Source: Isurus oxyrinchus
Lineage: Eukaryota
Direction of reading: 5' to 3'
DNA: 64,000 nucleotides
NCBI GenBank assembly: GCA_026770705.1
Contig: JANJGN010000034.1
Coordinates: forward strand, 5,828,001-5,892,000
The notes beneath the pieces were generated by a model that searched no databases, was not told the origin of the DNA, and saw only the letters and a program-made list of their open reading frames with translations. Within the stretch, counting starts at the first letter, position 1. Each line of letters starts with the position of its first letter. Positions 393 through 63,319 of the stretch are shown piece by piece. A program made the translations under genes and the position numbers.

Positions 393-419
393 ATGATAAG
401 CTGAAAACAAACGAAGAAG
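393..419 (+). pseudogene. Type-B micro-exon copy with defective donor (DDKLKTNEE)
   Basis: cag|ATGATAAGCTGAAAACAAACGAAGAAG|ttataa. 27 nt matching the B consensus but followed by TT, not GT; one missing G would restore the donor. Confidence 0.65.
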
Positions 420-2243: not shown

Positions 2244-2279
2244 AACGATCTAAGAACATGAAATCTTTAAGCAATTTGG
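2244..2279 (+). pseudogene. Type-A micro-exon copy with donor GT>AT (ERSKNMKSLSNL)
   Basis: Long pyrimidine tract, then gag|AACGATCTAAGAACATGAAATCTTTAAGCAATTTGG|atgaga. Exactly 36 nt; atgaga is one substitution from the A-type donor gtgaga. Confidence 0.6.
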
Positions 2280-7039: not shown

Positions 7040-7075
7040 AACTGAAGACATGCAAAGGCTCTTTGAATGCTTTTG
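7040..7075 (+). pseudogene. Type-A micro-exon copy, both splice sites mutated (ELKTCKGSLNAF)
   Basis: cat|AACTGAAGACATGCAAAGGCTCTTTGAATGCTTTTG|gagaga. CAG>CAT and GT>GA; L2/C5/L9/F12 pattern kept; lies about 1 kb upstream of a B exon. Confidence 0.7.
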
Positions 7076-8058: not shown

Positions 8059-8079
8059 AGGATAAGCTCAAAGCAGCAG
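8059..8079 (+). CDS. Type-B micro-exon, possibly shortened to 21 nt (EDKLKAA) via an internal donor
   Basis: cctaacag|AGGATAAGCTCAAAGCAGCAG|gtaaag. The 27-nt version (EDKLKAAGK, to 8085) has no GT after it. Confidence 0.55.
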
Positions 8080-8139
8080 GTAAAGCAGATGTAGGCGAAG
8101 CAGATGCTGTTTTAAATTATATAATAATTAATGCAGTAC

Positions 8140-12778: not shown

Positions 12779-12814
12779 AATTGAATGATTGCCAGAAAGC
12801 CTTAAAATAATTAG
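12779..12814 (+). pseudogene. Type-A micro-exon copy with in-frame stop and lost splice sites (ELNDCQKALK*L)
   Basis: cat|AATTGAATGATTGCCAGAAAGCCTTAAAATAATTAG|ttaaga. Confidence 0.75.
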
Positions 12815-13512: not shown

Positions 13513-13539
13513 AAGTGACACTGAAAAACAAGGAGAAGG
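13513..13539 (+). CDS. Micro-exon B (27 nt) EVTLKNKEK
   Basis: ccacag|AAGTG...GAAGG|gtaatt. Confidence 0.75.
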
Positions 13540-16500
13540 GTAATTATTTCGAAAATTCCTTGAGTTGGAATTATTTCATTTTTCACACCAGCAGGCAGAC
13601 AGGAAATATCTTCGAAAGTATTGGACATAACATTGCGTGTTTTGGCGTTCAGCATGGGGATCAGCATTTTATAAAGCAACGGCAATTTACCACAACTGTA
13701 ATATATTATAAAAGTTATTGAAAAAAAAGCGAATTGTCTGTAAAATGCCTCCTGAGATCATCAGTGTGTGAAGACTCTGTAAATAAACGTATACTTCGCA
13801 GTTTCATTTGAGAAAAATATAACTCCCCGTGCACACCAAATGTAAAAAGCGTTTCAGCATGAGTTGTGTCACCCACCGAGTCAATTTCTCAATTAAAAAT
13901 GGTTAGTAGCCAAATGCAAATTACAACATAGGAGCCCAACTTTTAGATGCCGAATTGGCCATGTATCCAGTCAGTCCAAGTATATCATTTAGAAGCAGGA
14001 GATTGCTACCATTTTAATGCAGTATTCGAATGGGATAGGAAGCAGTTGAGAGAATTTAAATAGCTTGGAAAAAGTTATAAACAGATTAGCCGAGTAAGGA
14101 AGAACATGATAACTTGAATAAAATGCACTTTAGTGAGAACAATTAAAAGAGCATGCTTTTCAACAGCATGAGACTAGGGTATGTATGCATTCAGGAGACC
14201 CATTTTGCGAATTACAGAAAATTAACACGTGGGCACAGGACTGGATTACGAAGCAAAAGCATGTTAGTCCATTACTTCTTGAAGAGAGATAAGACTGCAG
14301 ATAGAAATAGGCTAAACCAAAATTAGGTGCAATATTCCTCAGGAGAAACAGAGGGTATTCCGTCCTTTTTTCCTCTCCTTAATAATGGAAGGGCATAATT
14401 GCTTTAGTTGAGTGCAGTAAACCTTAAACATCCTAGTACCCGGGATGAGGCGAGTGCTGTAGCATGCGCACGAAACAAACTTGGACTTCATGACTACAGC
14501 TGAAAGGATACCAATGCGATTTAATCTTAACATACAAAATGGTAAGGAACCTGAGACGTTAATGCTGTAGAAATTATCAAATAATTGTAAAATCGATAGT
14601 TAGATATCACAGCCTCAGAGGGAATGGGCGTCCATTATTGGACAATATCTGGAGACATAAATTATGAGCGTTGTAAACCAGAAAGCTGTAAATGTTCCAT
14701 CGTTGAGTACATTCAAGGTAGCAGTCGGCAGATTTGAAATTTCTAATGAAATTATGGTCAAGTGAATGGAGGGAGGAAGATGAATTGAAGTGGAAGATCA
14801 GTCAATATGTTACTGAAGAATGGAGTCACCTGGAAAAGAGAATTGGATTATTACGGCAGGTATTACTTAAGCACTTACTTCACTGAATCTTTTGGTTCAG
14901 AACGTTGATAATCTGTATAACAACAATAACTGGAAGGATTATTTTTCTACATTTCAGAACTAACCATGTGCCAGGAGAATGTAGGCGATTTAGGTGAGAC
15001 TAACTTGCCGTTTGCTACAAAGACCTTTGTGGCCATTATTCAAATTAACATACTGTCTCTTATAAAATGTTAGATCAAACCGCTGTGTTGGAATTAATTA
15101 TGATTTTTCAGGAAAATTAAAGGCTTAGCATAGACCATCAGTTCTGCAGCAAAAATCCTGATGAGTTCAGTGGACCCTGAATGTCAACCTGATTGTAACT
15201 GGCATCCAAAGTCCCACCAGATACCGCCAGACAACATGCATTTTTATGTCTGAATATTGCAAGCGAATGGAAATGTCGTGCAAATATTAATTCCAACGTG
15301 CCTGCCTAAAACAGACCAATTGCAACCCTAACTGCATGCATGCAAATGACGTTTTGCGTTTCGCCGAAAAGTATATTTTTAGAGAATACAGATGGTAAGT
15401 GTAGCTCTAACTGGAGCTGCAACAACACTCAAAGGTCCTGGCACCACACAGGACAAAGCTTAACGTTTGACTGGCACCAAATATACCACCTTAAACTCTC
15501 TTCACCACGGTCTGCTGGTGGCAGCAATGTGTACCCAACAAGATGCAATGCAGCAACTCATGACTACTCCTTCCGAACCCACGAGCTCTGCAACCTAGAG
15601 GATCAAAAAGCAGAAGATGCTTGACATTACCACACTTGCAGGTTCCCCTACAAGTCACATACCATTCTGACTTGGAACAAAATCGCTGCTCCTTCACAGT
15701 TGCTGAGTCAAAATCCTGAAATTTCCTCAGTAACAAGACCATGGATGTACCTACAAAACATAGGCTACTGCGACTAAAGAAGGAGGCTCACCACCAATGT
15801 CTCAACGGCCAATAGTGATGGGGAATAAATGTTGGCAAATCCAGTGATGTCAAAATCCAGAGAACGAACGCATACATAAATAAATGAATAAATAATTAAT
15901 TCAATTAACAGATGAATCAATCAATCAAGAAAACAGCCAATCCATTATCTAAGCAATCCTTAACTATACTGGCTCACCCGCAGCTTGTAGCTGAAAAATT
16001 TGCCAGTGATGAAATAAATACACTGGTGGGTAACAGTGCTTGAATCTGAAGGCAAATATAAGATGCTAACTGTGTAAATTATAATAGTCGCTGTTAATAT
16101 CTTAGCCTGTACAACACATTGTACCTGTGCGAAGGTTAACTTGGAACGTGCAAAAAGTAAACTATTCAACCTAAGTTGTCATGTTGGTTCTTATGTTCCA
16201 GTGAAAAATGATTTTCACACTCTTCAGTTCACGTTAACAGGCAACGTGGTGTTATTTTTTTCCCCTTCTCTCAATTTTTCATTTTGCTACTCATAACTTC
16301 AGCTCATCGATTTGTCCAAACCATCATTCTGATGACAAATTCCTCCTTCCAATGAAATACCCCCTTATTCGGGATTGGACTTGTTAGTGAATACATTAAA
16401 TTAATTATCCTTAGTTTTTTTTTTCTCCCCGTGTCCCCATCCCCATTTATATCTGTCCATTTTATTGCAACGAATTGATTGTTTTAAAGCAGCAGTCGAT

Positions 16501-19500
16501 CATGCTTAACCAATCAAAATTTCAGAGAAATAGATTTTTCTGCCTTCTTTCCTGGTTCTCAGAATCATTACCAGAGCCATTGCCGCCCGGTAGGAGGACA
16601 TTCAGCCAACAGAATCCATGCCAACTCTCTGTAGAGCTTAAAACAAATATGTCTTGTTGTCATTATTGTGTGCGCCCTTTGTACGTTTTCCAGTCTTTCG
16701 TAACATCTCAAGAAGTGTGTATTTTAATCAATGTGCAGAATATTCATGGTGACTGGTGTCTGAAACTCTGTCGAGCGCTGCAGGTGCTGAGTCGGGAAAA
16801 AAAAAGTGTTTTGAACCCAGAGCCGCACATTGTGCCTGCGGGGCGCTCTAACCTACATATTGGAAACCAGAATTGTGCCCAGTAATATAATTTGCTCCAG
16901 TTAGGCTTAACGGAGAGAAAGAGAAAAAAAAAATGTGCGTGCTCCCCTACGTGAAGTTCAACCTATGCAGGAAACCAAAACAGACGAATAATATGATGCT
17001 TTTTTCTAACACGATATCTGTGTTATCTGGACCTAAATTCAACATATAACATCAACGTGTTAAGAGGCCAGAACTAGCATCAAGCAAAACAAATTAGCTA
17101 AAGGATAAATTCTTCGATCATATCGAGGCACAACCCTTCCAAATATTGCACAACCAAAGTGCTTGCAGACCAGGCCTGGATTCAGAAATTCTAGTTTTTT
17201 CTACCAATTTGTATGCAGACTAGAAATGTTTAAAATTCTAAAGAGTAATGTATATTCTGACCATAACGGCCGTCATTTGTATGCTGTTGGCTAACAAGTG
17301 CACACATATAATGAAACAATATACAGCAATCCACAATTTCCTTCAGCGTTTTTGTGCTGTGACTCGCAATGCTATTTGATTTTTCACAGGTTCGAAGTTG
17401 AATGGAAAGGAAAAGGGTAAGTGCATTTGTATATCGCTCATTTTATCCTGTAAACATTGCCTGAAAATCTTTCAATAATTCTTTGAAAAAAGGTTAAGGG
17501 AAGGTTTTTAAGCAAGTGTGAACAATCATGAAAACTAATCGTAGTGTAGAAATGGCAGAATGTTTTGCACTAGGAGAAGGCCCGGGATGCAGGGCACACG
17601 GATTTAAGTCCATTGGTGAGAGGTGGATGCAGAAATTCTATATTTTTTCTTTAGCTTAACGTGTAGTCACGTCCTAGAGTAGTGAATGCAAACAGTTTCA
17701 AAATAAACTGCCAAGAGACAATTAGAGAGTGCATTTTGGGAAAGCATATCAAACAGTACCAGTGGAGTTGGACAAATTGGCACTTGATCGAAAAAGTGAA
17801 GTAATCATTGCTTGTCTGCATGGTTGAAGGATTTGCAAAGTAATTTATTTTGAGAGTAATGAGAGGATGGAAATGCATGCAATTTCCCCTTGGCTTCGAT
17901 TCTCTTGTTAATATTATCGTTTCCGATCTTCAATCAGGGTCAAATAAGTTAGTACTTCAACTTTTCTGATGATATAGGATCGCAAGCACAACTCTGTTTT
18001 ACCATCTCCCTCCTTTTGCCATTGAGAGCCATGCAATGTAGCTAGCTCATGATCTCGTAGAAGATCACCCACAAATCTTGAACGCCCTATGTGATAAGTT
18101 GTTGTGTTTTCTTTCCACGTTGAAATTTAGATCTGTGGTAATGTAAAGGTCATGCCCTGGCACGGGGCTGCAATGCTTTCAGCAAGCATTTAAGGAGCCA
18201 ATGTCAACTACTGAAAATCTAAACTAAAAGCAAAAGGTCATAATTAATTGTTTAGGCACACCTGTGGAGGGAAACATTTTTTTTTCAGATCTATGACTGG
18301 TCATCATATATGGAAAACTGATCGACCTTAAAAGTTAACTGAATTCCTCTCCACAGCTTTTTACTGTCATGCTGTTTATTTCCTGCATTTCCTGTTTTTG
18401 AGCATATCATGTTAAATGATTAACATGCAGCAGAATTGGAAGCTAAAAAAAAAACACTTAATATCCTTAACGTTTAGTTTGAATTATCTGATAACGATGT
18501 AAGCTTCATATGATTGGATTGAAATACAAATAAAAAGAAAGTGAAATTCTAATGATATGAAGATATGGATTGTTTTGCATTGTGGAAAAGTTAAGCATTC
18601 CCCAACCAAATATTACCTCCTTGAGTGAACTAAGTGTCTTAAGCAGTAATTATGCACTTAGTCTGGCAGAAAAAAAAACATTATTGGATTCTCTAATACA
18701 CCTTTTGCACGATCAACCAACCTAGTTTTCTACTTTAAAAATATGAAGGTGGTTCTCATCTGTCAATTAGAAGAACACTGTATAACCAAAACTTTGGTAC
18801 TCTTTTAGCCTTAAGGAGAAAATAAAAGTACTGCATGGCACACACAAAGAAACAGACAGACACAAACATGAGCACAAACATGCACAGACAGACCCCATGC
18901 AAACTCACGTGTTCATATGCGCGCACACAAACACTGACACACAGAAATATACACAAACACATACCCAAAAAACAACTCACATGCAAACGCACATGAGGAG
19001 ACACATACACCGAAACACATATTTACACAAACATGCAGACAAACATACGCACACACATATACGCAAACAAAAATAAACAGACTCATAACACACACAGATA
19101 GACATAGTCGACAACACAAATATGCAGTGTGTGTACACACACATAAACACAACTTCAAACACATACATGTTCGCGCACGCAAACAGAAACACACAGACAA
19201 ACACAAAAACAGGTGACAGATGTTCGCAGATAACCCAAAAATTGGAGATGTGGGAAATAGTGAGAATGGAATACAAAGAATACAGTACAATGTACGGCAG
19301 ATTGGCAGAAGAGGGCCAATTGGAATATAATCCTGAGAAGCCTGAGGTGATGCATTTTGGGAGGACTAAAAGGCAAGGGAGCACAGGATGAACGGTAGGG
19401 CCCTAGGAAATTAATGGATCAGGGGTATCTTGGTGTGCATACACAAGTGTACTTGAAATGAGGAAAACAGGTACGTAGGTGGTTATGAATGCATATGGGA

Positions 19501-22500
19501 TACATGGCTTTATTAGTCGAGGCATTGAATGAAAGAACGGGGAGGTTATGATGGAACTGTATAAATCATTAGTACGGCCACTGGAATACTGATCTCCCAC
19601 TATAGGAATGATGTTGCACTGGAGACGGTGCATAGGAGTTTCACCAGTATGTTGCCTGACTTGGGCCATTTCCGCTATGGAGAAAGGCTTAATTGGCTGT
19701 TTGTTTTCTTTTTCCTTAAAGCAGAGAAGGTTGAGGGGATCCCTGATTACGGTGTACAAAATTATGAGAGGCATAGGTCTGGTAGATATTAAGAAACATG
19801 TCCACTAAGTGGAGGGGTCACTAACCAGTGGCCATAGATTTAAAGTAAGGTTCAGGAGTTTTGAGGCGATGTGAGGATTTTTCTTTTCACCCAAAGAGTG
19901 GCGGTTATCTGGAACTCATTACCTGAAAGGGTGGTAGAGGTGAGAACTTTTAGACAGTTAAGGAGTATTTAGATGAATAATTGAAACGCCAAAGCATATA
20001 AGGCTACGGGGCATGTGTTGACAAGTGGGATGACAGTAGATAGGGTTGAAGCCCAGTCCGGACACGCTGGGCCGAGAGGCGTCCTTCCCTTTTGTAAAAC
20101 TCCATGAGCTTATGAGTCTGTGACACACATGTTCACAAACACAGACAGACCCACACACAATCTCAGATGCACAAATGCAGGCACACACAAAAGCACACAC
20201 ACTTAAAAGCAGGCACCCAAACTCACATGCACACTCACTAACATACACACACGCTGAAATATACATGCAGGCAAAGTCATTGTGCAAACACACGCAAACA
20301 CATGTGCATACGCACAGACAGATGGGCACAGTCACAAACACACATGCAGACATACACACTCGTGTGTTCACACAAACACTTCAACTGAAATCTAATCTTC
20401 ATTTTTGTTTTTCTTTCCAGAGCTAGCGAAATGTTTGGAATCATTGAGTGCATTAGGTAGGCAAGTTACTTGATTGCAAACTGACAGTTTTTTTTTTTCA
20501 CGAAGTCATACAGATAAGATCAAATGAACCTATGGGCGCGAATAAAGCAGGGTGGAATGATTTCCTAGACGTGCAATTCGAAAACGAACATCAATGAACG
20601 GTTAAGTGTAAAATAAAATGATGTGATTACAAGTCCTGAGAGGCACATGCTAAGACTTTATCTGAACCGGTTTGATCTGGATTTCATTCATTGCGTCATT
20701 TTGCTTAAAGGGTGAAAAGCTCGCTCCTAATCTTCTTTTCTTATTAGCCGGTGCACAGAGAACGATACAATTCACAACACGTCAGCTTAGTCAGGCTACA
20801 TGGCTGCATATGATGGTCAATAACATGTCCAGACATCAGCGGTCAATAGAGGCGTTCACCCCCATTGTCTGTCTTGCTTCTGCGACTGTATCCACACCCC
20901 AGAGTTCCTGGAAAAAAAGACATCAGGCCTACCTGAGACAAAGCATGGGTAGTGGGAATCGGAGAGAGTACAACAAAAAATTCACCAAAGAATGAATATG
21001 GTGATTTGAGAAACTCCCTTTTTCTTGAGTAGAATTAAAAAGTAATTTATTGTACCACTTTTTAAAGCAAATGGCCATGTTTGTTCATTTAACTTTGCTT
21101 GATGGCAGTGCAAAGCAAAGTTGGAAATGTGTAGAAAGCAAAGCGGACGCAAGCTGACCTTCATATTAGATTGTAAAACCGAAAGATCAGTATTTCGCAC
21201 TCGTCACATATTTATCTAATCGCAAGACATGATATTGTGTTATGTTAATTTGATTACATTTTGCTTTGTCACTTACTGCTTTTGCAGATGAAAAGCTGAA
21301 AGCGAAAGCCAAAGGTAAATAGTTTAACAAAGACATTAACATTGCCAAAGTAGCTGACTCATTAGTGAAGATTGTTGCTTTATACGCATTTACTCCCAGA
21401 GTTTCTATTATTTTTCTTTCATTTCAAGCATTTTTAGCATAAAATCTAGCACATACGCCAGATGCCTGCAGGTGAAGTTTTCAAATGGCCGAAGGACAAT
21501 CTTGATAATGCTGCATTAAAATGAGGTCCTTATGGCTCTCAGAGCAGAATTCTACCGTGAGTATCGATAATCAGATGTTAGCTCAGCACTCGTCAAATGA
21601 CTTCTTGGAAATGTCTAGTGGAGAATTGTTTGCTTGGCTGCCTACAGCACTACCATGACTAGACTACAGAATGCATTTTAAGGCGTTCCAGGCAATACCG
21701 AATTTTGGAAAGCCTGTATGCATATGCTGGTTATTTTAAAGTAAACCAAAATAAAGCAGTGCATTAATCTGAGCAGAATTACATGAGGAATGCTGAACAG
21801 ACTAAATGCATAATTCCCATTCTCTTTCTTATTACACAATGCACAGATATCCCTTTACTGCATGTGATTGTGGAACGAGGCCCGCTCATTCCAGCGCGAC
21901 ATTACAGATGCACGTTTATCATGGAGAGTGGGAAGAAAAGTCAGGCGTTATGTCTTCCAGGCAAATTTCCGCTTCATTGAAGTAATATTGTCCCTCACTA
22001 CAAATAAGCGCATTATTCATTGTTAATTGCATCTAATCGTATATGAATTGCAGGCAATCAAACAGGCAACTTATTTAAACTGGTCCTTGATATTTTCCCG
22101 TAAACATCCTTGCTACACTTTTACATCTAAAACCACCAGTGTAACTTAGGTTTTATTCATTTGCCGCCTGTGGACTTTAACTTAAACACACCTAGTATAT
22201 TCTCTGAACTGTCCGCGTTGGTAGAAAGTTCCGCTTCTGAAGCATAATCTGGAACAGATTGTTTATTCTGTACAATTTAATGGACTTAAGGTGACTCTCT
22301 CGTATTTAATAGCATTGTTTTTGCACGCTGCAAAATAATCCGAAATCCCCACCTCCATATTAATTTATTCTTATTTGATCGAAATCCACATTTCAGTTTT
22401 CCAAAATGATATAAGAGTGATCTGCACGTGAACATTCCATTCGGCATATGGTAGAATTTTCTCTGGACCCATATTTTATGATGCGAAGAAGTGATATTAA

Positions 22501-52500: not shown

Positions 52501-55500
52501 ATTGCAGAGCTTGTCAGTCATTAAGCACTTGACAGGAAGCTGGATTTCAAAAGCATGACAGGATCAAACACGGGCTTTCATGAAAGTCTTGAGCTGCAGC
52601 TGAATGGTAGGGAATTGGTAAGAGTCAAGTTAACGTCGGGCAGGAGTGAGATGCATCATGATTGAGATGTAATATTGGTGAGATGGAGGAATCGGTGCCA
52701 TTTGATGCATCAGTGATAGCGGTCTGTACCTGTTATGGCTGGTGTGCAACAGTTCGTTCATAGGTGACTTAATTGGAAGGAACACAATAATCATGTTGTT
52801 CCTCCAACAGACATCCCGTTATTGTTAGCTTATGCACATTTTTGTTTACGATTTCGCAAATATCTCACTGCCCTCCAATGGCACCACTTTTGGAGTAAAG
52901 CGGAAAAGCACACAACGTACCTTGCGGTGGTCCAGATCAATATTCATCCAGTAAGAAAATCATTACAAAGAGCCAATATCTCAATATGTCTGATTATAGT
53001 TCATGGGACGTTCTTCTACACAGATTGGTTGCTTTTCTTCCCTACCCTACAGAGCCGACAAACTTCACAAATGTAACCCATTGTTTGCAAGCCAAATTGG
53101 ACGGCCCTAATAGTGTGAACCGAAATGTAGAAATTCAAGTCTTACTTTCAACCTAATTGTTAACATATTTTAAACATATGAGATCCTGGGGTATCTGAAC
53201 ATGGTAGAATTGGAAAGGTGCCAGATTGTATAGGGGAATTATATCGAGTTACTAGGGATTAGCACCATATGTATGGTTTTATTGAATTCAGTAGACTACC
53301 AATAGCCTGGTTAATAATGGAAGAATTATTAACACTGTGACCGGGAGCGATTTTCAACTCCTTCATGTAGCACAAATTATCCACGTCAACGCAATCGTTT
53401 CCTAATACCATTTGAGAAAGTGGTAAAAGTGTTATTTTTTTAGACATCATTTTAGAATGTCATGCTCATAAAGTCCCAATGGCCCCAAACGCCTTTAAGT
53501 ATTTTATTCCAACTAATTTCATACGTTTTAATTTTTTATTTCCTCTTTAACAGAAGAGAAATATAAAGCGAAAGAGCAAGGTGAACATTTGCTGAGATGA
53601 AATAGTGAATGTTTTCCATGATGCAATTATTTCTTTGCTTCAATGTGCCAAGAGATTTACAACGCATCTTACATCAATCATCCACAGCAATAGCAGGTGC
53701 CTCATAGAACTAATGTATTCAGTATGGTACTTATAAGGCAGGTATTTTCTCTTGTTGTAAAACCAAAACGAGAGTGTCATGTATGTGATGATAGGACAGT
53801 TATAGATGAATCCAGTAGTTAATCCAACCAGTAAGTCTGGACATGGGTATTGACGACAATATGGACTAATAGATAACATTGTAGATTATGCGCTGGATAG
53901 CAAAGGTGAATTTAGAAGATGCTTAATATGTTCAACAAGTAGGATGGAACAGGAAATATTGCTGATGATGGAAGTTGATGCAGGGAAAGAGAATCCTTTT
54001 TGAAACATCGCCACTGATAACGTCAAATGAGGTCCAATGATGTACTTCCAATTCTGTCTACTTTATGGCCTAGTTTACCGTGAGAAATGTCACATTGGAT
54101 AGACTACATCTCTGTAACAAATCCCATCATGTGCTTATAATAGCATGGAGAAAGAAGTGAATTATATACTGGAATGACAATTGAATGACCCTCCTTTTAG
54201 ATCGTGGCGTAAGGTAAATTCGTTATTAGCACATTAGAAGAAACTAGAATTCGTGCAAAACTACAGAAATTAGGATTTTAGCATAGCAGTTGCATCTTTA
54301 TCAGCGAACCTGGGGGCGATTGAGAAACGAGACTTGCTCGCAGAGGCAGCAGGATTTTGGATGGCTAATATAACAAATATCGTAGGGAGTCATAAACAGA
54401 TAGCTGTGCATTGGAGCGGTCAAATCTAGAGATAATAATTTCATGGATGAGGGCTTCAGCATCGGAGGCCCTGAGATGCAGGTGAAGTAGAGGCTTGTGG
54501 AGTCACACCAAGGTCATGAAAAAACTGGCTTAATCATGGACTGCTGCCACAGAAAGCGATGTGTTGGTTAATTGGAGCAGAGAATTGCAAGGGAAACAAA
54601 ATCATAGGCTTCATTCTTCTCAATATATATCTAGGGGAAATTCCTGTTTAGCCAGTACTGGATTTGGAATCAGCAGTCTGATAATTTAGAGCAGTGGAGG
54701 ATTCGAGAGAGCTGGCAAATAATTAGATGTGTGTGCCATCAGTTTGCAAGTGAAAATTCATAGCGTGCCTTCATATGATTTGGCGAGGGGAGCAATTACT
54801 GTTTGTTGAGGGCAACAATGGGCACCGTGTTGGAGCAAGAAAATATGCCATTTGCCATTTATCTGCAGGCTATAATTACATAGATAAAAATTGAACCTTG
54901 TGAGAGTGGTTCAGTCCAGCTATAGGTCAGTGTCAAATTTTGGATTAAGGTGCTTGGTCAACCGTGTCAAATGTTTCAGACCGTTGGAGATGGGTGAGTG
55001 TTGAATGTTTACCTTAGCCACAGACGCCACAAATGGTGTGGCATTTGAAATAATGGTTGAAGTTGTTTCAGTATGGTAACAATGTGAAACCTGATTGTAT
55101 GGATTCGAACGTATTTCTTTCAAAAATGGGAAGTAACTTGGAAGCCGACAGCTCTTAATTGCTGTTTTTAGAAGAAAGAGCGTTTGCAGATGACATTGGT
55201 TGTTTACAATCGCGTTGGTCAATAATGTTTTGGGAGAGGGGTGAGGACAGTGGACTTAAAGCAGAAAGGGAGAATATATGAAGAGATAAACCCGTAAAAT
55301 CATGGTCAAACTTGCTGACAAGAAGGGCAGATGGTTGGCCTGCTAAGCACGGAGGGAAAACGATATGGCTGCCATACGTCAGGCAAGTGTGGAGAGCACA
55401 TGGACAGTGATTGGCGTGAAAGTAGAGAAACCTGCGAGTTTAAGGTTGGGGTAAGGAGTGGAATAGAGGGAAAGTTACCAAGGCAGACACGAAATAGAGA

Positions 55501-58500
55501 AATATGTAGCACAAGCAGCTGGCCATAGTGTTTTGAACTTAGTGACAAAGATATCAATCAGAGACTTGTAGTTTCTGTTGGGGGAGAGGGTGGAAGAGAC
55601 AGGGGGGAGGGATTTAAGTAGACTTAGAGGCAAGAGTTACAATAGAGGATGATCCAACAATTTTGAGCTGTGATGACTGCAATATCGATAAAGTCTAAGA
55701 GACCCTAAAAGTTCTAGAGTAGGCTCTTGCAGACTCACCTCATGTAACTTCATTTCTAAAGGGATATAACTGAAAAATCTGAAGTTGATGTCTCAGTTTA
55801 CGAGGAAGTGAGTCACTGCGGTAATGCCTGAAAAATGCATTATTTAGTCAAATGTAATATGAAGGTTCTCCAATTTAGTAAACAATGTGAAATCATCACA
55901 ATGGGAAAATTATCACTCATATACGCAAAGGGAAGAATTAATAATTTTCCCTTGAAAATTAAGTTACCATTTATTTTCTATTGAATTTGCAGAGCTAATG
56001 GATTGTCAAGATGTTCTGAAAAATTTCGGTGAATAAAGCACTTTAATTGCATAATTACATTTTCAGCTAATTAATTGTGGTAGAGTCAAACAATTCTTCA
56101 AGGAACATTCGAAATTTCCAAGTAAAATACAAACACCTAAGTGTGTTTCTTTTGAGATAGTGAATGTTTTGTTAGGATATCAGATGAGCAAGTCTTTTGG
56201 GCACCGTGTGGAAATGCCTCCGGCAGCTCCTTGCCACTACACTACAGCAAGTAATTAAGATAAAGGGGGGTTAACTTTTCGAGTCCATACAACTCTTCTT
56301 CACAGCTGGTTATGGAGTTAATGCAGGGAAGTAGATTTAAGGCACAACCAGATTTGTTATATTCTTCATGAATGGAGGGGAAGGTTAGAGGAGCAAAATG
56401 GCCTAATTCTGCTCTATTCTCATATATTCTTACATTGTTCAGGGGCGACATCATTATTTCTGCTTTGTTAAAAATGCACAGAGCCAAAGTCTGTACCAGC
56501 TCCATTGGATTGAGAATTATGAATCTTGAGTTGCAATCACAAGAATCTCAGAGTTTTACTCACTAATCCAGACTATTTAAAACAATGCTTCCTTTTGGAG
56601 AATAAAGCAAATTAAATGACGGTTAAAGACCTTAAAGTTTACTTTTGTTAGGATATGAACAACAGGAGCGAACAGTCAATGATCAGGAAAAGGAAGAGGG
56701 AGTTGTAAACTATGCTATGGGATGTCTGATACCGAATTGCAGATCACGTTTTTATGCTCATTGCCACTGCATTTACGATAACTTTTCTATTGCTGATATT
56801 TCCTTTCTGATTCACAGAAAATGTAAAGAAGGGTAAGTATACGTATCTTACAGAAAATGAACTTGCAAATACGTTGCTCTAAAAAATCATCTCTGGTGGA
56901 ATCAGCCCAATATCCCGTCGAGTATCTTGCCTGATGTTGAATATAGAGTTATTAAGTTTTTTGCACGTCCTACTGTGACATCCCCCCTCCCTATCTCTGT
57001 AACCTTCCACAGCTCAAAAATCTTTTTTAATCCACTTAATTTGCTTCCTTAATTTCCGATTTAGTACTTTCCCAGCCCCCACCTCTACACGTTTAAGACA
57101 TTCGCTAAAAACTGTGCCTCAGAGTGATTGGCTTGATATCTTTCATAGTATATCTCTACCTGTTTGTTGTGGTTTGTTACTGTTTCTTCCATACCGAAGT
57201 ATGTTTCTGCCTTCTTCATCGTTGTCTGTTTAGTAAAATATATTAACCTCTTCAGCCAAATCCAAAGAAGGCACATACCGCATGAAGGTCCCCAGGAGAC
57301 GTTGGAGTCGAGTGAACATGAGCCAGGATGTGACCTCTTCCAAAAGCGAAAATTTTTAAGAGAACCTGGAAGGCTGATAAAATATGCATCTGATGGACTT
57401 AAAGACTCATGCTCTTTCTCTCCGCCTTGCAGAGCTAAACACCTGCCAGGATACCGTAAAAGATTTAGGTGAGCCAATCAGTATTGATGCCTGCTGAATT
57501 TCCGGACCATTTGCTTACTCTTAAATGAAGCAAAGCTCCAAGTGTTTCTAAAGCACAATGGAGAAAGAACAATCCTGGAGCATTAATGCAGTTTTGTTTT
57601 AAAGATGGTGAACTTCAAAGCAATGACAGATTGTTCTGCATGGAGAGCTGAACTGCCAGTCAAAGTGTTTACGTGTAAAGCTCAGTCAGAATCTTGGCAA
57701 GTGTCTTTATGGATTGTTCAAAGTTCAGAATGATTCACATAAATCATATCATGGATAAAACATGGCCTGTGTTGTAGGAGCAGTTGCTGGCATTCACTTG
57801 ACAGACTGATGTTGAGTCACGTGTGTATTAAGATTCACTGACTACAATGGAATTAAATAGTTGGGTAAGGTACATAATCATCCCTCTCTATGGAATCGCA
57901 CATATTGCCTGGTTATCCAAAATTATATTTCATCGTGTAGAGCTTAGGTAATGTGAATGGTACCGAATCAGCACTCATCGTCACATTTCACAAATTTTAA
58001 ATGTTGTTGGATGCAAGGTTAAAAAAAAGACCTGGACATTTTTCACGGAAAGGGCGATAAAGAGAACAATTAAATGACCTTAGGAATTTGGCTTCATTTA
58101 CGTTACCTCCAAGCTCTGTGGTGTGCATTTGCCGTCGATTGTGCCACTGCGAGGTAAAGAGGAAATCTTCACTATTCAAACTCGTTTGTGCGATAAGAAA
58201 CGTAGCAAGTTGCGAGCTACCAATGAATAAATGGCTGTAGTCAACTTTCCAAGCGTTGTTCCATACAATTTTCAATGTGTGCCACGTGCTCAAGTAGAGG
58301 TATGTTTGACCTGCACTGTCGGCCACATGCAGAATAGTTTGGTATTCAGTGAAATCTTTCCACAGTAGGTCACGGATTCGTTCATTTTATTATTTATTCT
58401 TGATTTGTTTCACAGATCAATTAAAAAAAGGTCAGTGGAAATATGCTCTAGCACCTCACCATCTAAGTGCATGAAAATAAACACGAGGAAAGATGGATTG

Positions 58501-61500
58501 GCAGTGATTACACATTCCAATTTTAAGTAACTTTTAAATTATTATTATATCTAACTCCATCTGCGGCCTCGTCTTTCCATATTTCCTTGAGAATCTTCTG
58601 CCCTTTCAACTGGCTGCAATTTCATTTTCACACCACGCTGGCCTTTTACCGATCGTGCTGTTCCTTTACCTAACCAATGGCATTTTATGGCTTCTGTAGT
58701 ATGTCCCAAGGCTCTGAAGAATGTTTGCTAAACATTGCGCCTCACACCCTCCTTCCTCCTTTAACATACACATATTTCCTGGGCTGTTTCCAAAGCCCAA
58801 CCCTCATCCTCACCCCGAAGTCTGACCAATAATTTAAGTTTCGCTCAATTCATGTTGAAATGCAGTGAGGCTCCTTACGCCCTGTGGCACTTCGGTTATC
58901 GAGAAGGCCTGCTTGGAACCTGAGAAATACTCAGCAGACAATGAGCTGCATTACATGTCCTCGGAACAAAAAGAGGAATACATGTCATCTTAAACAACTC
59001 AGTGGCTCCTCTGGCGAACGAAGGCTGCAAAAGAGACAAACCTCTAATGGTTTCAGTTTTCTGCCATTGGATCATGCTATCGTTCACTAAATACAGTCGT
59101 GGAAGATGGTGTGCAATGGTTTCCCCTTCCTAAAATTTTGCCAGCACAGGCATTTGTCTTTCTGCGTACATCTATCATAACATTAGGTGTCCACCGAACG
59201 TTGGAGTGAGCATTGTTGCGTTGTATCAAAACGCTCACTTTAACTACGCTAGAACCACATTTGGTCAATTGAGAAAGCGAGCATTTGAAGGTCGCAACAC
59301 CAACATTGACAGGAAGCTCATGATCTGTTGTTTGTGCTTGATTCCGACGTTACTCTATGGGGCTCCAAGATGGAAAACGGACAGTAGGCACCTCAAGTCC
59401 CTGTTAAAACTGGCTGTGCAAGGATTTGCATTTAGTGGGAGGACAGAAAGGTGGACGCTGTCACCTGTCAGGTATCAGACTCCCAAAGCAGGTATTGTTC
59501 TCCAAGATTAGCGAGGACAGATGCACCAGAGGAGGGCAGAGGACGATATTAAGGGATGTGCTGAAAAGTAACATGAAGAAAATGAATTAATCACATCGAC
59601 ATCTCAGTGAACACCGTTTATACATTAAGCCAAATGGCACCAGGCACTTTAGGAAGGACCCCAGCACTTTGAAAAAGAACGACTATAAAATGATTCAGGA
59701 AAACAGGAGAGGCCAAAGGAACACAGCATGCCCCGAATTAAGGATACACATCCTGACACCCAAAATGGCTTGGGTGCATGAAGTCTGCAGTTCCCGAATC
59801 TGCCTCTTCAGCCAACTCAGGCTCATGATAGACAATTGTCCGCTCTACTGAGGCGCAGCCAGTAATAACATTATCTGCACGCAATTAATCACGTGTCCCA
59901 ATGTGGCCCGATGTTGCATCACCTCCATTTTTGTCGAAACTGTTTCACAGGAAAAAATTATGTTCTTTAGCTGGATTAAGTCACTGCATACATGCAAATT
60001 ACCCTTTCCTGTCAACAGTCTATTTTCAATCTCTACCACCAAAGTTTCTGCCGACAAATCTGAGGAAACAATTGCTTGCAGGACGACTTCTCGAGGGTTC
60101 TTACAGTACAGTTAACCAAGTGGGAGACAACCAAATTTCACAGAGTGAAAGTAAACATTTCTACCATAATCAAGGAATACAGCTTGTCATAGATTGGTTA
60201 CAGCAAAGAAAGAGGCTATTGGGCTGTTTGGTGTGGTAGGCGGATCTCTGGGTGATTATTTTGGCTGTTCCCATTGTCCAGAACTTCACGTGCAAAGCAT
60301 GCAATTTGCTTGCTATTCAAAGAATTATCCAGCTCCCGATTAAAAGCCACAATTATCACTTCGCTGAGCTCATTCTTAGGCATTGCATTTAAGAACGTAA
60401 TGGCGCTCTGCACGTGTATCTTTTTCCCCATATCCCCTTTGGTTCTCTCTCAGTTCATGTTAAATCAATATCTTCCACTTCTTAACCATTCCGGATGGGA
60501 AGAGTCTAGAACTGCCTAATATGTTCAGGCCCCGTCCTGAATTTGAGAATGCCCATCAAATCTCGTTTCAATCATATTGTATCTATGTACAACCGGTCTA
60601 AATTCCCAAATCTTTCCACCTAGAAGAAACAATCATCTCTGCAAACATTCGCATGTGCACACTAACTACCCTCTCAAACGACTTCACTTCGCCCTTAACA
60701 ATGAAGTCGAAAATATGATGCAGTTCCCGAGTTGAAGTCGAACTAGCGGTTAAACAGGTTTACCATAACTTGTTTTCCTTGGCTGTCTAGTCATCTATTT
60801 ATAAAGTCGAGTATTTCATCTGGCTTCGTGACAGTCTTTTCAATCTGCCCTGCATGTTGCAACCATTTGTCCTCTTATACTCCCAAAGCCCCATCAGCAG
60901 CTTCAATCCCATTTGGAATGCCATCACAACTTGTTCATTATCTCCTCCTACCAAAATGAATCACGTCATGACTCTCACTACTAATTTCATAGCAATAGTT
61001 CCTCCAATTCCACCAGTCCTTCTGCTTCCGTTTGACGTATTCACCATCTTCCTTGGAATTCATAGCCCTGTAAAATCTGAAAACTTTGAAGTTTTGCCCT
61101 GGACACTCATGTTTAGGTCCCTGATGCATACCATGTAGAAAGATTGGAAGGGGGAAACTGCATAGTTTTGTTGACACTTCAGTCTGGATCATCCATTTAA
61201 TGAATTACAGAGAAAAGTGACTGTCAACAAGCTGTAAAAGACCTAGGTGAGCAAAACATTCCCGGTGTCGCTTTCAATAACCTCTCTTAATATTTTGAAC
61301 CATTAAGCAAATACGTTTATATCCTTTAAAAAGTGAAGTAATCAATTCAGGCACACGTCGTTTGTTGATTGGTCCACCTTTGCATCTGTTGATTCAAAAT
61401 AAAGAAAATACTGGGCAGAAAGCAAAACAGGCCATTAATCCGATACTGGGCAGTGTGAATTTCCGACGCTCCATGCGTCATGATTATTGGCGCTTCTTGT

Positions 61501-63319
61501 CACAACTCTTGCTCAATCCTGCACACTAACGGAATGATGAACATTGTTAACTTGATCGATTTGGTACCACATTGGAAAGTGTTCTGACCAATAACAAAAC
61601 TCCTCCCACTGGTGAAAAATGTTGTTTAATCTTAGAATTTTTGGTTTGTTTATCATGTAATCCCGAACAGAAGAAAAACTCAACGCAAAAGAAAAAGGTA
61701 CCTGATCTAACGTTTTTTTCTTCAAGAAGCCAAAGATTGACAATGGCCGGTTGATTCTTCACATGATTTGTTTTGTTTTTGTATGAATGTTTTATGTTTT
61801 TTTTTAAATAAGCAGGTTGCTAGAATGTACCCTAAGGGTTGGCAGCAGACGAATCCCATACAAGGGCTCCATAGTTTCGAGTTACGTGGGCACATTTTCG
61901 GATGTTGTGTCACACAAGGTTGGAAGACAATAAATAACCTGTAAACTGAAGAAATGGATAAGGAATTCACTTAATGCTCCTTAAACACGGTCGTGGTAAC
62001 AACGAACTACTCGCTAACACATTGAATTTAGAAATAAAACGTACGTGATGGTTAAGAATGATATGTTTGGTGATATAGTTTATGCAAGAGGTCTTGTGAC
62101 GACGTTGTGGTGTCACAACTTTAGACCAGAAGCTCTGGGTTCAAGTCTTACTTCAGGAATTGATGGCTGTTGAAGCTGCTTTTGTAAGGTGGCCGGCTGT
62201 ATTGCTTAGGAACTTGTCAAACCTTCCAATGTGCCTGGCAGCAGGTGCTCAGTTCGGGGGAGATGCTGGACAGCCAGGTTTTAGAAAGCAACGTCAAATG
62301 ACTGTCGTACTTTGACAAGCATAATCATGACCACATCCAGTGGAAACGCATGATCACAAACACCGTCTGAATACAAGCTAGCTGAAAACTAGGAATGAAA
62401 TAACATATGTGGTACGTTGTTCTGGTGGAGGATAGCCTTCGGCATGGGACACTTGATTGGACGGACAAATATTTTCCTCTTATTTATATTGGTCGGACCG
62501 CCTTCTCAGTGTCGAATTCCATGGACTTTTTTTTTGGAAATGCAACTCACTCCAAATACGCAAGGTGAAAAGACAGAGGGCTCGCTATAGTTGATCGGTG
62601 ACGTGCCTAAACAGGGAAAAGGACTGTGTATCTGCTTAAATAATGTAATTGAACAATCGTTGACAGGAAGAACTTGGCAAAGTCCCGCAGGAAAATTAAG
62701 GCTGCAAAAGCATTTGTAGCACAGTTGTGCATGTTAATTTGCAAACACAAGCACGGTGCATGTGCAATGTCTTATATTTTAAAGCATGCACAATATGCAA
62801 TATAATATCCTAAAGTATGCCATGCAACTATTGGATTACCGTCTTGCGGAGATTTAATGTGATGTCCCTGTATATTATTGCACAATCTGTACTCAAGTAA
62901 GGTTAGCGATGCCAGCCTTGCCCTTAATGATACTGCAACGCCGACATTCTGCTCTTCCTTAAAATGCAGTACGAATTGGCAGCCCAATTTAGACCTCGTA
63001 TTTTTATGAATATGATAAAAGGATCAGCTGATGTAAATACTCTGCCGTTATTTATGTTGAGTTTAAGTAGGCGCTTCACGTGAAGCGAGCGGCAGTGCCT
63101 ATGGGTAATATGGAATGGGATATGTCGAAGTATGGAGTGCGTGGAAGGACATAATCCACTCTTTCGAATACATTGACCTGTACTATAAATTCTGCTTAAT
63201 AAGTCGGGAGGGCGGGTGGGAAGAAATGGGAAAACGTGCTGAAATTGAAATAATGGTGAAACTTTCACATCTCACCATTTTAGAGATTCTAACGTGTCAA
63301 GAGTCTTTAAAGGATTCAG
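13513..63319 (+). CDS. Multi-exon gene segment: 27 intact phase-1 micro-exons (12x36 nt, 13x27 nt, 2x15 nt) encoding about 271 aa of a 21-residue-repeat coiled coil; gene ends outside window
   Basis: Each exon is bounded by AG and GT, has a length divisible by 3, is phase 1 and has no stop. Spliced peptide: EVTLKNKEK ELTMCQENVGDL GSKLNGKEK ELAKCLESLSAL DEKLKAKAK DLTGCEDNLDKL GEELKLNSK EQKKMSDALKDL EEKLKTKVI ELNNCQVSSEDL DDKLKETGK EVKVCQDALKDL EKKLKGRVE ELAKCEEALDIL GDTLKAKEK GEKLIAKEK EFDDFQKKC KRELTDKTK ELENLKQKMKDL EEKYKAKEQ ELMDCQDVLKNF ENVKK ELNTCQDTVKDL DQLKK EKSDCQQAVKDL EEKLNAKEK EILTCQESLKDS. Confidence 0.85.
13900..14830 (+). mobile_element. Decayed CR1-type LINE 3' fragment
   Basis: Same order of CR1 3' landmarks as 19270-20110, heavily diverged. 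Confidence 0.45.
14958..14993 (+). CDS. Micro-exon A (36 nt) ELTMCQENVGDL
   Basis: tttcag|AACTA...TTTAG|gtgaga. Confidence 0.85.
15390..15880 (+). mobile_element. Non-LTR retrotransposon 3' tail (family shared with 36440-37020)
   Basis: Direct similarity: caagtcacataccattctgacttgg...gtcaaaatcctg...ccaccaatgtctcaa...ggaataaatgttggc, followed by an A-rich tail. Confidence 0.7.
17390..17416 (+). CDS. Micro-exon B (27 nt) GSKLNGKEK
   Basis: tcacag|GTTCG...AAAGG|gtaagt. Confidence 0.85.
18835..19215. repeat. Degenerate (CA)n-like low-complexity tract
   Basis: Visible CA/AC periodicity. Confidence 0.9.
19270..20110 (+). mobile_element. 5'-truncated CR1-type LINE
   Basis: Encodes YNPEKPEVMHFGRT...LFSFSLKQRRLRGSLITVYKIMRGI, characteristic of the CR1 ORF2 C-terminus, with frameshifts and a 3' UTR. 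Confidence 0.85.
20120..20380. repeat. Degenerate (CA)n-like tract, continuation of 18835-19215 beyond the CR1 insertion
   Basis: Visible CA periodicity. Confidence 0.85.
20421..20456 (+). CDS. Micro-exon A (36 nt) ELAKCLESLSAL
   Basis: ttccag|AGCTA...ATTAG|gtaggc. Confidence 0.85.
21288..21314 (+). CDS. Micro-exon B (27 nt) DEKLKAKAK
   Basis: ttgcag|ATGAA...CAAAG|gtaaat. Confidence 0.85.
23037..23072 (+). CDS. Micro-exon A (36 nt) DLTGCEDNLDKL
   Basis: ttccag|ATTTA...ATTAG|gttggg. Confidence 0.8.
23651..23677 (+). CDS. Micro-exon B (27 nt) GEELKLNSK
   Basis: taacag|GGGAA...GAAAG|gtagtt. Confidence 0.8.
23700..24350 (+). mobile_element. Decayed CR1-type LINE 3' fragment
   Basis: CR1 3' landmarks (gaaacaaggaagttatg..., gcagaggagattcagtaaaat..., gtgaaggtttatggggaag). 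Confidence 0.45.
24520..26170. repeat. Unclassified interspersed element with a G-rich, strand-skewed interior
   Basis: Abrupt shift to G-run-rich sequence (24840-25870) inside an AT-rich intron; similar architecture at 48830-49990. Confidence 0.45.
26290..26325 (+). CDS. Micro-exon A (36 nt) EQKKMSDALKDL (no Cys)
   Basis: ttgtag|AACAG...CTTAG|gtgaga. Confidence 0.85.
26560..26840 (+). mobile_element. Short copy of the non-LTR 3' tail family
   Basis: gcagcagatgcattggaacacc...acacaattctgacttggaacgatattacc matches 15610-15720 and 36750-36860. Confidence 0.6.
27130..27380 (+). mobile_element. Decayed Deu-domain-like SINE fragment
   Basis: ccccgtctgccc...gtggacgttaaa...aacagattatttggtcat resembles the DeuSINE/AmnSINE core; weaker relatives near 6150-6450, 21540-21740 and 51960-52300. 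Confidence 0.4.
28081..28107 (+). CDS. Micro-exon B (27 nt) EEKLKTKVI
   Basis: tcacag|AAGAA...CATAG|gtaact. Confidence 0.85.
29778..29813 (+). CDS. Micro-exon A (36 nt) ELNNCQVSSEDL
   Basis: ttacag|AGCTA...CTTAG|gtgaga. Confidence 0.85.
30941..30967 (+). CDS. Micro-exon B (27 nt) DDKLKETGK
   Basis: gaacag|ATGAT...GAAAG|gtacac. Confidence 0.85.
31100..32300 (-). mobile_element. Decayed RTE-clade LINE RT fragment
   Basis: Minus-strand peptides SEPFKIHHRVKHIFVLAPTVF (cf. GVKQGCVLAPTLF) and RELIYTDDDTL (cf. LYADD). Confidence 0.65.
33400..34350 (+). mobile_element. Decayed CR1-type LINE 3' fragment
   Basis: atgaagttcaaacccgacaaag...ggtggtcaagaagccacttggaatatgtgtcttcatt... parallels 19320-19520. 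Confidence 0.55.
34879..34914 (+). CDS. Micro-exon A (36 nt) EVKVCQDALKDL
   Basis: ttatag|AGGTA...TTTAG|gtgagt. Confidence 0.85.
35975..36001 (+). CDS. Micro-exon B (27 nt) EKKLKGRVE
   Basis: tggtag|AGAAA...TGAAG|gtattg. Confidence 0.75.
36440..37020 (+). mobile_element. Non-LTR retrotransposon 3' end with poly(A)
   Basis: Codes LSTIYKAQVRSVLEYS...LKKINSIQEKAAR (LINE ORF2 C-terminus); ends caataaacgctggccaagccagcgaaacccacatcc...aaaaaaaa. Confidence 0.8.
37131..37166 (+). CDS. Micro-exon A (36 nt) ELAKCEEALDIL
   Basis: ctgtag|AATTG...TTTAG|gtgaga. Confidence 0.85.
   Translation, partial: NWRNVKKLWTF
37738..37764 (+). CDS. Micro-exon B (27 nt) GDTLKAKEK
   Basis: aaaaag|GAGAT...AAAAG|gtatat (AAG acceptor, weaker). 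Confidence 0.75.
38860..39960 (-). mobile_element. CR1-type LINE fragment (RT C-terminus to 3' end)
   Basis: Reverse complement contains GPQLFTIHIND and AKLADNTN-like RT relics near 39720-39820; homologous to 9320-9960. Confidence 0.7.
40110..40560 (-). mobile_element. Inverted copy of the non-LTR 3' tail family
   Basis: ccaggattttgacccagcaactgtgaaggaac is the reverse complement of the 36825-36860 motif. Confidence 0.75.
42500..42535 (+). pseudogene. Degenerate type-A copy (DLRLCQISVKCI), splice sites not canonical
   Basis: atg|ATCTCCGCCTCTGTCAAATCTCAGTGAAGTGTATCG|ggttaa. L2/C5/Q6/V9/I12 pattern; sits about 0.9 kb before the B exon at 43427, where an A exon is expected. Confidence 0.5.
42590..43340 (+). 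mobile_element. Decayed L2-type LINE 3' fragment
   Basis: ctcattaacgcctttgtt...ctgcaatcttgactggcctacc and terminal gcgtgctatagaaataaag resemble L2 3' ends. Confidence 0.45.
43427..43453 (+). CDS. Micro-exon B (27 nt) GEKLIAKEK
   Basis: ttacag|GAGAA...AAAAG|gtgatg. Confidence 0.8.
44040..44640 (+). mobile_element. RTE-clade LINE fragment (endonuclease-RT linker)
   Basis: NRWVEKANEIYPYMDQHNMHGFIQSINTIHG resembles RTE/BovB WWxxKAxEIQxxADxxNMxxFFxAIKxIYGP. Confidence 0.55.
45481..45830 (+). mobile_element. tRNA-derived SINE
   Basis: 5' ggggaggcggttgcc... A-box-like head, body ccatttggttcac...ccgtccttacctg...gtgattccagacc, and a LINE-like tail; paralogues at 47240-47550 (+) and 48410-48780 (-). 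Confidence 0.65.
46988..47014 (+). CDS. Atypical 27-nt micro-exon EFDDFQKKC (A-like start)
   Basis: Pyrimidine tract ctttattttctctcaag|AATTT...ATGTA|gtaagt; strong splice sites, phase 1. Confidence 0.6.
47240..47550 (+). mobile_element. tRNA-derived SINE (second copy)
   Basis: ggtggcgtagtg A-box; tail gaatgctggcctagccagcgaagccacattccatgaacg. Confidence 0.6.
47740..48390 (+). mobile_element. Decayed non-LTR retrotransposon RT/3' fragment
   Basis: MQQILGNVQAWADD and downstream similarity to 36440-36800. Confidence 0.5.
48410..48780 (-). mobile_element. tRNA-derived SINE (inverted copy)
   Basis: Ends cattaccgctacaccaccatctcc, the reverse complement of the SINE head. Confidence 0.55.
48830..49990. 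repeat. Unclassified element with a G-rich interior
   Basis: G/T-skewed block 49290-49740; architecture similar to 24520-26170. Confidence 0.35.
51746..51772 (+). CDS. Micro-exon B (27 nt) (K/E)RELTDKTK
   Basis: ttgcag|AAAGA...TAAAG|gtaaaa. Confidence 0.8.
52434..52469 (+). CDS. Micro-exon A (36 nt) ELENLKQKMKDL (no Cys)
   Basis: tttcag|AATTA...CTTAG|gtgagc. Confidence 0.85.
53554..53580 (+). CDS. Micro-exon B (27 nt) EEKYKAKEQ
   Basis: taacag|AAGAG...GCAAG|gtgaac. Confidence 0.85.
53850..55700 (-). mobile_element. Decayed L2-type LINE
   Basis: Minus-strand QVSHCYHTETTSTIISN (cf. QSGFRxxHSTETALxKVxND), with LLPLSLLKS-type RT relics upstream. Confidence 0.55.
55993..56028 (+). CDS. Micro-exon A (36 nt) ELMDCQDVLKNF
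   Basis: ttgcag|AGCTA...TTTCG|gtgaat. Confidence 0.85.
56818..56832 (+). CDS. Short micro-exon (15 nt) ENVKK in a B slot
   Basis: tcacag|AAAATGTAAAGAAGG|gtaagt. Confidence 0.75.
57433..57468 (+). CDS. Micro-exon A (36 nt) ELNTCQDTVKDL
   Basis: ttgcag|AGCTA...TTTAG|gtgagc. Confidence 0.85.
58416..58430 (+). CDS. Short micro-exon (15 nt) DQLKK in a B slot
   Basis: tcacag|ATCAATTAAAAAAAG|gtcagt. Confidence 0.75.
59150..59850 (+). mobile_element. RTE-clade LINE 3' fragment
   Basis: ARTTFGQLRKRAFEGRNTNIDRKLMICCLCLIPTLLYGAPRWKTDSRHLKSL matches RTE/BovB ASxAFGRLRKRVF...PTLLYGxETWTxYxRHLKxL. Confidence 0.7.
60250..61100 (-). mobile_element. Decayed CR1-type LINE 3' fragment
   Basis: Minus strand DWWNWRNYCYEISSESHDVIHFGRRR (cf. 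W..W.M.FN..KC.VMHFGR). Confidence 0.55.
61211..61246 (+). CDS. Micro-exon A (36 nt) EKSDCQQAVKDL
   Basis: ttacag|AGAAA...CCTAG|gtgagc. Confidence 0.85.
61671..61697 (+). CDS. Micro-exon B (27 nt) EEKLNAKEK
   Basis: gaacag|AAGAA...AAAAG|gtacct. Confidence 0.85.
63284..63319 (+). CDS. Micro-exon A (36 nt) EILTCQESLKDS
   Basis: ttttag|AGATT...TTCAG|gtggga. Confidence 0.8.

Follow-up and report, generated by a model that had tools for sequence, protein, structure and literature searches.

Micro-exon array in the Isurus oxyrinchus window

The 64,000-nucleotide (nt) stretch of Isurus oxyrinchus DNA considered here (assembly GCA_026770705.1, contig JANJGN010000034.1, positions 5,828,001 to 5,892,000; hereafter the window, ~39% GC with 129 N) contains an array of very short exons on the + strand, which is a real gene encoding coiled-coil repeats in which Cys and Lys recur at core positions. 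The DNA is intron-rich and eukaryotic with vertebrate-type splice sites, and the exons were located by splice-site enumeration together with iterative profile scans. Two phase-1 micro-exon classes are present, A (36 nt, 12 codons) and B (27 nt, 9 codons), and one A+B pair makes up a repeat unit of 63 nt, or three heptads, with both introns in phase 1. In total, 28 intact exons were found between 13513 and 63319 (13 A, 12 B, two 15-nt B-type exons and one probable A-derived exon of 27 nt), along with seven decayed copies (four A, three B), as listed below.

393..419, +, dead B copy; donor TT
2244..2279, +, dead A copy; donor AT; Asn at nominal codon 5
3338..3364, +, dead B copy; acceptor and donor both lost; stop
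7040..7075, +, dead A copy, Cys5; acceptor and donor both lost
8059..8085, +, B copy; normal donor lost; possible 21-nt form via internal GT
12779..12814, +, dead A copy, Cys5; acceptor and donor both lost; stop
13513..13539, +, B exon, earliest intact exon
14958..14993, +, A exon, Cys5
17390..17416, +, B exon
20421..20456, +, A exon, Cys5
21288..21314, +, B exon
23037..23072, +, A exon, Cys5; donor weak
23651..23677, +, B exon, Asn7
24220..24255, +, dead A copy, Cys5; GC donor; stop at codon 12; B partner absent
26290..26325, +, A exon, Met5
28081..28107, +, B exon
29778..29813, +, A exon, Cys5
30941..30967, +, B exon, Thr7
34879..34914, +, A exon, Cys5
35975..36001, +, B exon, Arg7; splice sites weak
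37131..37166, +, A exon, Cys5
37738..37764, +, B exon
42008..42043, +, A exon, Cys5
43427..43453, +, B exon
46988..47014, +, probable shortened A-derived exon, 27 nt; assigned from sequence, acceptor, splice scores, similarity to A and spacing; less certain than the other exons
51746..51772, +, B exon
52434..52469, +, A exon, Leu5
53554..53580, +, B exon, Tyr4
55993..56028, +, A exon, Cys5
56818..56832, +, short B-type exon, 15 nt; 17-residue unit (stammer)
57433..57468, +, A exon, Cys5
58416..58430, +, short B-type exon, 15 nt; second 17-residue unit (stammer)
61211..61246, +, A exon, Cys5
61671..61697, +, B exon
63284..63319, +, A exon, Cys5, last in the window

The two classes alternate at 33 of 34 junctions, which was equalled in none of 100,000 shuffles. 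The sole exception is the dead A copy at 24220, and as it has no B partner, skipping it preserves the register. Every one of the 28 model exons retains AG..GT, and joined across 50 kb they are stop-free, giving a frame of ~283 codons (~280 residues) devoid of Pro and Trp, which as a helix would measure ~42 nm and in which Lys, Glu and Asp account for 129 of 282 residues. The initial annotation let the array run from 14958 to 63319; the end is retained, but the start lies further upstream, with an intact B exon at 13513 and dead copies back to 393, and the array probably runs on beyond both ends of the window. Collagen, which also has 27/36-nt exons, was rejected as an identity, for no exon frame gives Gly-X-Y and the 282 modelled residues hold 10 Gly and no Pro.

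Heptad register and irregular units

The core columns of the 21-residue repeat are 2, 5, 9, 12, 16 and 19, in 3-4-3-4-3-4 spacing, with columns 2, 9 and 16 (Leu/Val) at position a and columns 5 (Cys), 12 (Leu) and 19 (Lys) at position d, and the hydropathy period is 3.49 (power 19.6). When the centre of the hydrophobic face was computed without columns 5 and 19, Cys5, Lys19 and Leu12 were each found 28 degrees off it. The earlier assignment of Cys and Lys to one d position each per 21-mer is thereby borne out, and the possibility of a solvent-exposed Cys was checked by the same angle, which turns the Cys towards the core.

The initial description of a Cys every 21 residues is accurate for six of the eleven intervals, which in order are 21, 21, 42, 21, 21, 21, 25, 35, 17, 17 and 21; the others (42, 25, 35, 17 and 17) depart from it, and this uniform description overlooked two 17-residue units. 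These arise from the 15-nt B-type exons at 56818-56832 and 58416-58430, which have strong splice sites and produce two stammers in succession, wound at 3.4 residues per turn and with a Cys layer on either side of each. The one gap in the A/B alternation is closed by the exon at 46988-47014, which carries Phe at the Cys position and a Cys at codon 9 (position a), has a GTAAGT donor and creates a heptad stutter; the stutter and stammer register assignments are our own. From this exon begins a 35-residue Cys-free stretch, including the Leu5 A exon at 52434, which is a possible hinge.

Conservation of the core cysteine and lysine

Cys occupies codon 5 in 11 of the 13 intact A exons (six TGT, five TGC), the exceptions being Met (26290) and Leu (52434), so that the pattern formerly counted as 10 of 12 persists with revised numbers. 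The report of Cys5 in three dead A copies was likewise confirmed (7040, 12779 and 24220, out of four, with Asn at 2244); because dead copies decay neutrally, this is inheritance and adds no evidence. Relative to a background of 3.8%, 11 of 13 Cys corresponds to P ~2e-13 corrected for 11 columns, an upper bound on significance since the exons were chosen partly by sequence similarity.

Divergence between copies at synonymous sites (pS) is near saturation, at 0.70 for A and 0.75 for B, with non-synonymous values (pN) of 0.43 and 0.33, and the flanking introns share only background identity (0.29-0.33), demonstrating that the duplications are old and that the Cys is no recent copy artefact. The Cys codon itself, with pS 0.81 versus pN 0.28, is under purifying selection. 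Retention of at least 11 of 13 Cys was simulated on a star tree at several depths, and neutral drift was rejected with P ≤0.001 at depths 0.5-1.2 and with P of 0.025 at 0.3, a depth too shallow for the observed pS.

The counts of the initial annotation were recovered exactly for the B exons: 11 of 12 carry Leu4, and 9 of 12 carry Lys7. Lys7 is replaced by Asn, Thr or Arg, which are polar and never hydrophobic, and its pN of 0.19 is the joint-lowest in B, a pattern that fits a maintained polar d layer. An attractive g-e' pair flanks four of nine Lys layers versus none of 11 Cys layers, making the Lys layer the one most often so flanked.

Geometry of the cysteine layer

Parallel bundles were built by Crick parametrisation as ideal backbones, independent of sequence and without side-chain packing. 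The dimer places d-d' beta carbons (CB) 3.2-3.7 A apart, from which a distance of 2.0-2.2 A between the Cys sulfurs (SG) is reachable, whereas a-a' CB-CB distances are 5.9-6.8 A. At the d position of a trimer, SG-SG distances of 2.1-2.5 A require an eclipsed disulfide (chi3 near 0), and in a tetramer they are at least 3.6 A, permitting no pairing. According to these models, it is at d that Cys can be joined by a symmetric disulfide in a parallel dimer, and a trimer appears poorly suited.

A proposed stapled rod and its alternatives

An extracellular or lumenal, disulfide-stapled parallel dimeric rod is the best reading, held here at a probability of roughly 0.45. The exons would specify the central part of an extended (at least 280 residues, ~42 nm) parallel two-chain coiled coil belonging to a secreted or membrane-anchored protein, which would have grown by old tandem duplication of the 63-nt A+B exon pair. 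Each repeat would provide four Leu/Val core layers, one Lys d layer and one Cys d layer. The Lys layer is expected to weaken the core, disfavouring higher oligomers and slips of 7 or 14 residues, and the Cys layer, one heptad after Lys, could form a symmetric Cys-Cys' disulfide if the transcript is expressed and its product enters an oxidising location, so that the chains would be held in register in the manner of PLVAP and BST2. The inter-chain disulfides inferred earlier thus stand as far as the ideal parallel dimer brings d-d' Cys to disulfide distance, but not as to extracellular topology, as no signal, transmembrane (TM) or terminal exon was found in the window and no homologue in searches of low power.

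Several observations weigh against the stapled rod. Neither a signal peptide nor a TM segment nor a terminal exon was found within the 64-kb window, and the 12 Asn give no N-glycan sequon, with about one expected. No BST2 or PLVAP chain in the PDB was matched at E ≤10, in searches of low power with queries of 21-40 residues including intron flanks. Conservation of the Cys (11/13) is no higher than that of core Leu (10/13 and 11/12). Lys9 is kept as well as Lys7 (9/12), with Lys3 and Lys5 nearly so (8/12 each), and since B exons are 79% purine, splicing-enhancer or composition constraints could contribute to Lys7. The Crick model is idealised and sequence-independent, and the d-only geometric argument is soft, because PLVAP, by its published numbering, has disulfides at a positions too.

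A possible, if doubtful, alternative is a cytoplasmic coiled-coil tail or scaffold, BG/butyrophilin-like or other, whose Cys would be a reduced small hydrophobic d residue kept by packing and codon trapping, with no special thiol chemistry. A simulation allowing only Leu, Ile, Val, Met, Phe and Cys retains at least 11 of 13 Cys with P 0.45-0.86, because such selection bars most one-step mutants of TGY, a result that counts for the tail and against the stapled rod; the observed replacements, Met, Leu and Phe, lie within this set. The lack of sequons and the high charge point the same way, and in the accessible part of PMC5938342 the chicken BG tails are cytoplasmic, with phase-1 micro-exons, codon 4 at a, codon 7 at d and a conserved Cys, so that both the Lys/Glu/Asp-rich composition (129/282) and the B-exon register match them. 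However, P drops to 0.009-0.24 once Ala and Tyr are tolerated and to 0.0005-0.04 with Ser and Thr as well (depths 0.5-1.2), the BG exons in that part of the source are 21 nt (a few 18 or 24) rather than 36 plus 27 with their Cys projecting outward, and Ig-V, TM and B30.2 exons were not found in the window. The polar one-step neighbours of TGY (Ser, Tyr, Gly, Arg and Trp) are seen at the Cys position in none of the 13 intact A copies, and other core columns accept Ser, Gly, Gln, Lys and Tyr; judged by this polar tolerance, the evidence leans toward thiol-specific selection on the Cys, without proof.

A parallel trimer, for example a lectin-type neck or a cytosolic trimer, is decidedly unlikely. 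Each Cys layer would then gather three thiolates at the axis as a metal or redox site, and in the Crick model the three SG atoms do converge 1.3-1.5 A from that axis. Leu dominates position a (27/38) and the middle d layer, and according to design rules Leu at a and d permits trimers. On the other hand, three Lys in the d layer of each repeat would be hard to bury, the adjacent core layers lack the His, Asp or Glu for completing a metal site, and no lectin exon was found in the window.

Very unlikely is an intracellular structural fibre, such as one of the sperm tail or cytoskeleton, with late oxidative cross-linking, in which Cys and charge recurring every 21 residues would permit staggered assembly. 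Charge does recur most strongly at 21.2 residues (A net -1.8, B net +0.8), and by virtue of the repeat a slip of 21 residues leaves all Cys layers matched, but this charge period is weak (power 5.6 versus 19.6 for hydropathy) and is interrupted by the stutter and the two stammers. A decaying pseudogene, or splicing that differs from the model, can almost be dismissed: six consecutive upstream copies are dead and the low-power single-exon profile searches found no transcript or protein match, yet AG..GT and the open frame persist in 28 of 28 model exons over 50 kb and pN is well below pS.

Dead copies and intron sequence

Dead copies differ from live exons at 20 of 91 conserved positions, compared with 37 of 325 among the live exons. 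Selective silencing of their splice sites was considered and rejected, as 11 of 28 splice-site versus 20 of 91 conserved body positions differ (P = 0.09), with P = 1.0 after discounting one obligatory change per exon. Six consecutive dead copies in correct B-A alternation lie at 393-12814, upstream of the first live exon, and span an assembly gap of 129 N (~11986-12114) that adjoins a TC repeat and may hide exons or a paralogue boundary. Decay of this block looks neutral, and it represents either a part lost from the present gene or the remains of a paralogue. Within it, an internal GT in the donor-less B copy gives a 21-nt exon (8059-8079) of exactly one heptad with a good acceptor, which may still be in use. 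Weak exon-like stretches at 32531-32557 and 45461-45487 (B-like) and at 53208-53243 (A-like) were kept out of every count, their recovery by nhmmer as extra dead copies being unconvincing; the stretch at 53208 is perhaps a remnant of a long interspersed element (LINE).

MAFFT aligned the B exons onto the second half of A (A columns 6-12 against B columns 1-7) in equal heptad register, hinting from sequence likeness that A and B might both derive from one heptad-sized ancestral exon. Such joint A+B alignments superimpose the two classes rather than setting one after the other, and did not serve as search queries. The upstream introns of A exons (-80 to -21) are slightly more similar than shuffles (z 4.9), possibly through branch-point or enhancer constraint on micro-exon inclusion; this was not seen for B, and downstream of A exons intron conservation did not reach significance (z 0.7). 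Repeats dispersed through the introns, on both strands and 59-70% identical, occur at 15415-15868, 26571-26725, 29343-29487, 36456-37016, 40114-40489 and 3875-4014, and at 9607-9932 and 39082-39410. They resemble the tails of LINEs and short interspersed elements (SINEs) common in sharks and rays, and we take them to be probably old LINE/SINE copies.

Searches for identity and topology

The homology searches used single-exon profiles against proteins of up to 2,000 residues, and local controls indicated a reach little beyond the gene itself or a close orthologue. An A-exon profile from a 40-column alignment found no homologue among 641 candidates (its own modelled protein scored 47 bits, a held-out half 15-18 bits), and neither did a 21-position A profile among 5,112 candidates (102 and 10 bits, respectively). 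The one match in 1.84 billion representatives, an unrelated singleton, covered only the intron flank of the first row and was discarded. Owing to the low power of single-exon profiles, these blank searches carry little weight on novelty, which is not established by them.

PDB sequence searches gave just intron-flank or designed-protein noise, and the ESM Atlas no usable match. Pfam returned no family for 10 of the 13 exon rows scanned, with short queries of low power, and nothing meaningful for 16 selected long frames of the window (three sub-threshold matches, no lectin match); Rfam had no match in the window, and no neighbouring gene was found within the 64 kb. None of the 13 TM-like + strand stretches in the window has an in-frame acceptor and donor on both sides. 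At 9062-9279, a phase-1 acceptor leads into 72 open codons that close with a hydrophobic stretch of 27 residues, a stop and ATTAAA; as a terminal TM or anchor exon this candidate was set aside, as it has no homologue, ESM Atlas or repeat match and may be chance.

Significance

Disulfide-stapled parallel coiled coils (PLVAP, BST2) and micro-exon heptad arrays (BG) are already known. The literature searched, mostly without subscription papers, contained no description of the present gene, nor of a regular ladder with at least 12 core Cys, one per three heptads and each after a core Lys layer, built from a duplicable exon pair. If extracellular, the product would be a natural modular covalent rod, variable in length by gain or loss of exon pairs, and would be a clean system in which to ask how register and oligomer state depend on Cys and Lys d layers and whether stammers can be held by disulfides. 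The product might in addition be an immune or endothelial surface protein, from an early-branching jawed vertebrate, that annotation has missed, and exons of 15-36 nt are easily overlooked there. If cytoplasmic with a passive Cys, it would be an ordinary repetitive coiled coil.

A more specific proposal, speculative and rather unlikely, is a cartilaginous-fish surface or matrix protein from a family not yet described, perhaps a much elongated version of the tetherin/PLVAP design, that would act as a modular disulfide-stapled ruler. Its length would change in steps of 3.1 nm by gain, loss or skipping of A+B pairs, disulfides on either side would clamp the overwound 17-residue units, and a Cys every 21 residues would also let chains join into staggered, covalently linked fibres.

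Comparison with known systems

In gene architecture the closest system is the chicken BG tails, which the accessible parts of PMC5938342 and PMC4046983 describe as heptads encoded by numerous phase-1 micro-exons, the first codon of each being split and the number of exons varying. Exon B shares with them the phase, codon 4 at a and codon 7 at d, and the A/B boundary after d also matches (PMC5938342, in the same part). In contrast, the exons here are 36, 27 and 15 nt, and that part of the source describes no periodic core Cys ladder for BG. As the 21-nt exon size of BG is not found, no family assignment is made.

Two other proteins recall single features of the array. The stalk of CD23 (FCER2) has a 21-residue three-heptad repeat of 63 nt per unit with one exon per repeat, but is trimeric, is not known to have periodic Cys and ends in a C-type lectin domain. 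Drosophila Mst101 is a helical sperm protein with periodic Cys.

The closest working analogues would be PLVAP and BST2. In BST2, the core positions C91, V95, L98, L102 and E105 (PMC3235769, Table 1) follow a 4-3-4-3 layer order equal to that of Cys5, Leu/Val9, Leu12, Leu16 and Lys19 in the shark repeat, and the accessible part of that paper holds that symmetric disulfides offset destabilising core residues, a combination that would be paralleled here by core-position Cys plus a presumably destabilising core Lys. Different from the shark array, BST2 has three Cys in ~115 residues versus at least 12 in 283, its polar layer is Glu rather than Lys, and it needs both TM and glycosylphosphatidylinositol (GPI) anchors, neither of which was found in the 64-kb window. 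The two analogues are neighbours in the tetherin synteny, MVB12A - BST2 - PLVAP, as given in the accessible part of PMC9599465.

PLVAP differs from the shark rod in its irregular Cys spacing without tandem repeat, its sequons and its N-terminal TM segment, as far as the accessible account of it goes. We know of no micro-exon repeat structure for PLVAP. The CC1 segment of mouse PLVAP, as described in the accessible part of PMC10083539, forms a parallel dimer in which Cys142, 153, 178, 199 and 224 (spacings 11, 25, 21 and 25) make symmetric disulfides; Lys189 lies in its core, and it has a stutter, which in the authors' view is offset by the disulfides. By the numbering of that paper, with the register inferred from Glu174 at d and Gln210 at a, Lys189 and two of the PLVAP Cys fall on a. 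The two proteins nevertheless share an extended heptad architecture in which several Cys lie in the core, some of them 21 or 25 residues apart, together with a core Lys and a stutter adjoining Cys layers (PMC10083539, same part), and next to the disulfide-offset stutter of PLVAP stand the two Cys-bracketed stammer units of the shark rod and its single spacing of 25. By this analogy, the shark rod most plausibly works like PLVAP CC1.

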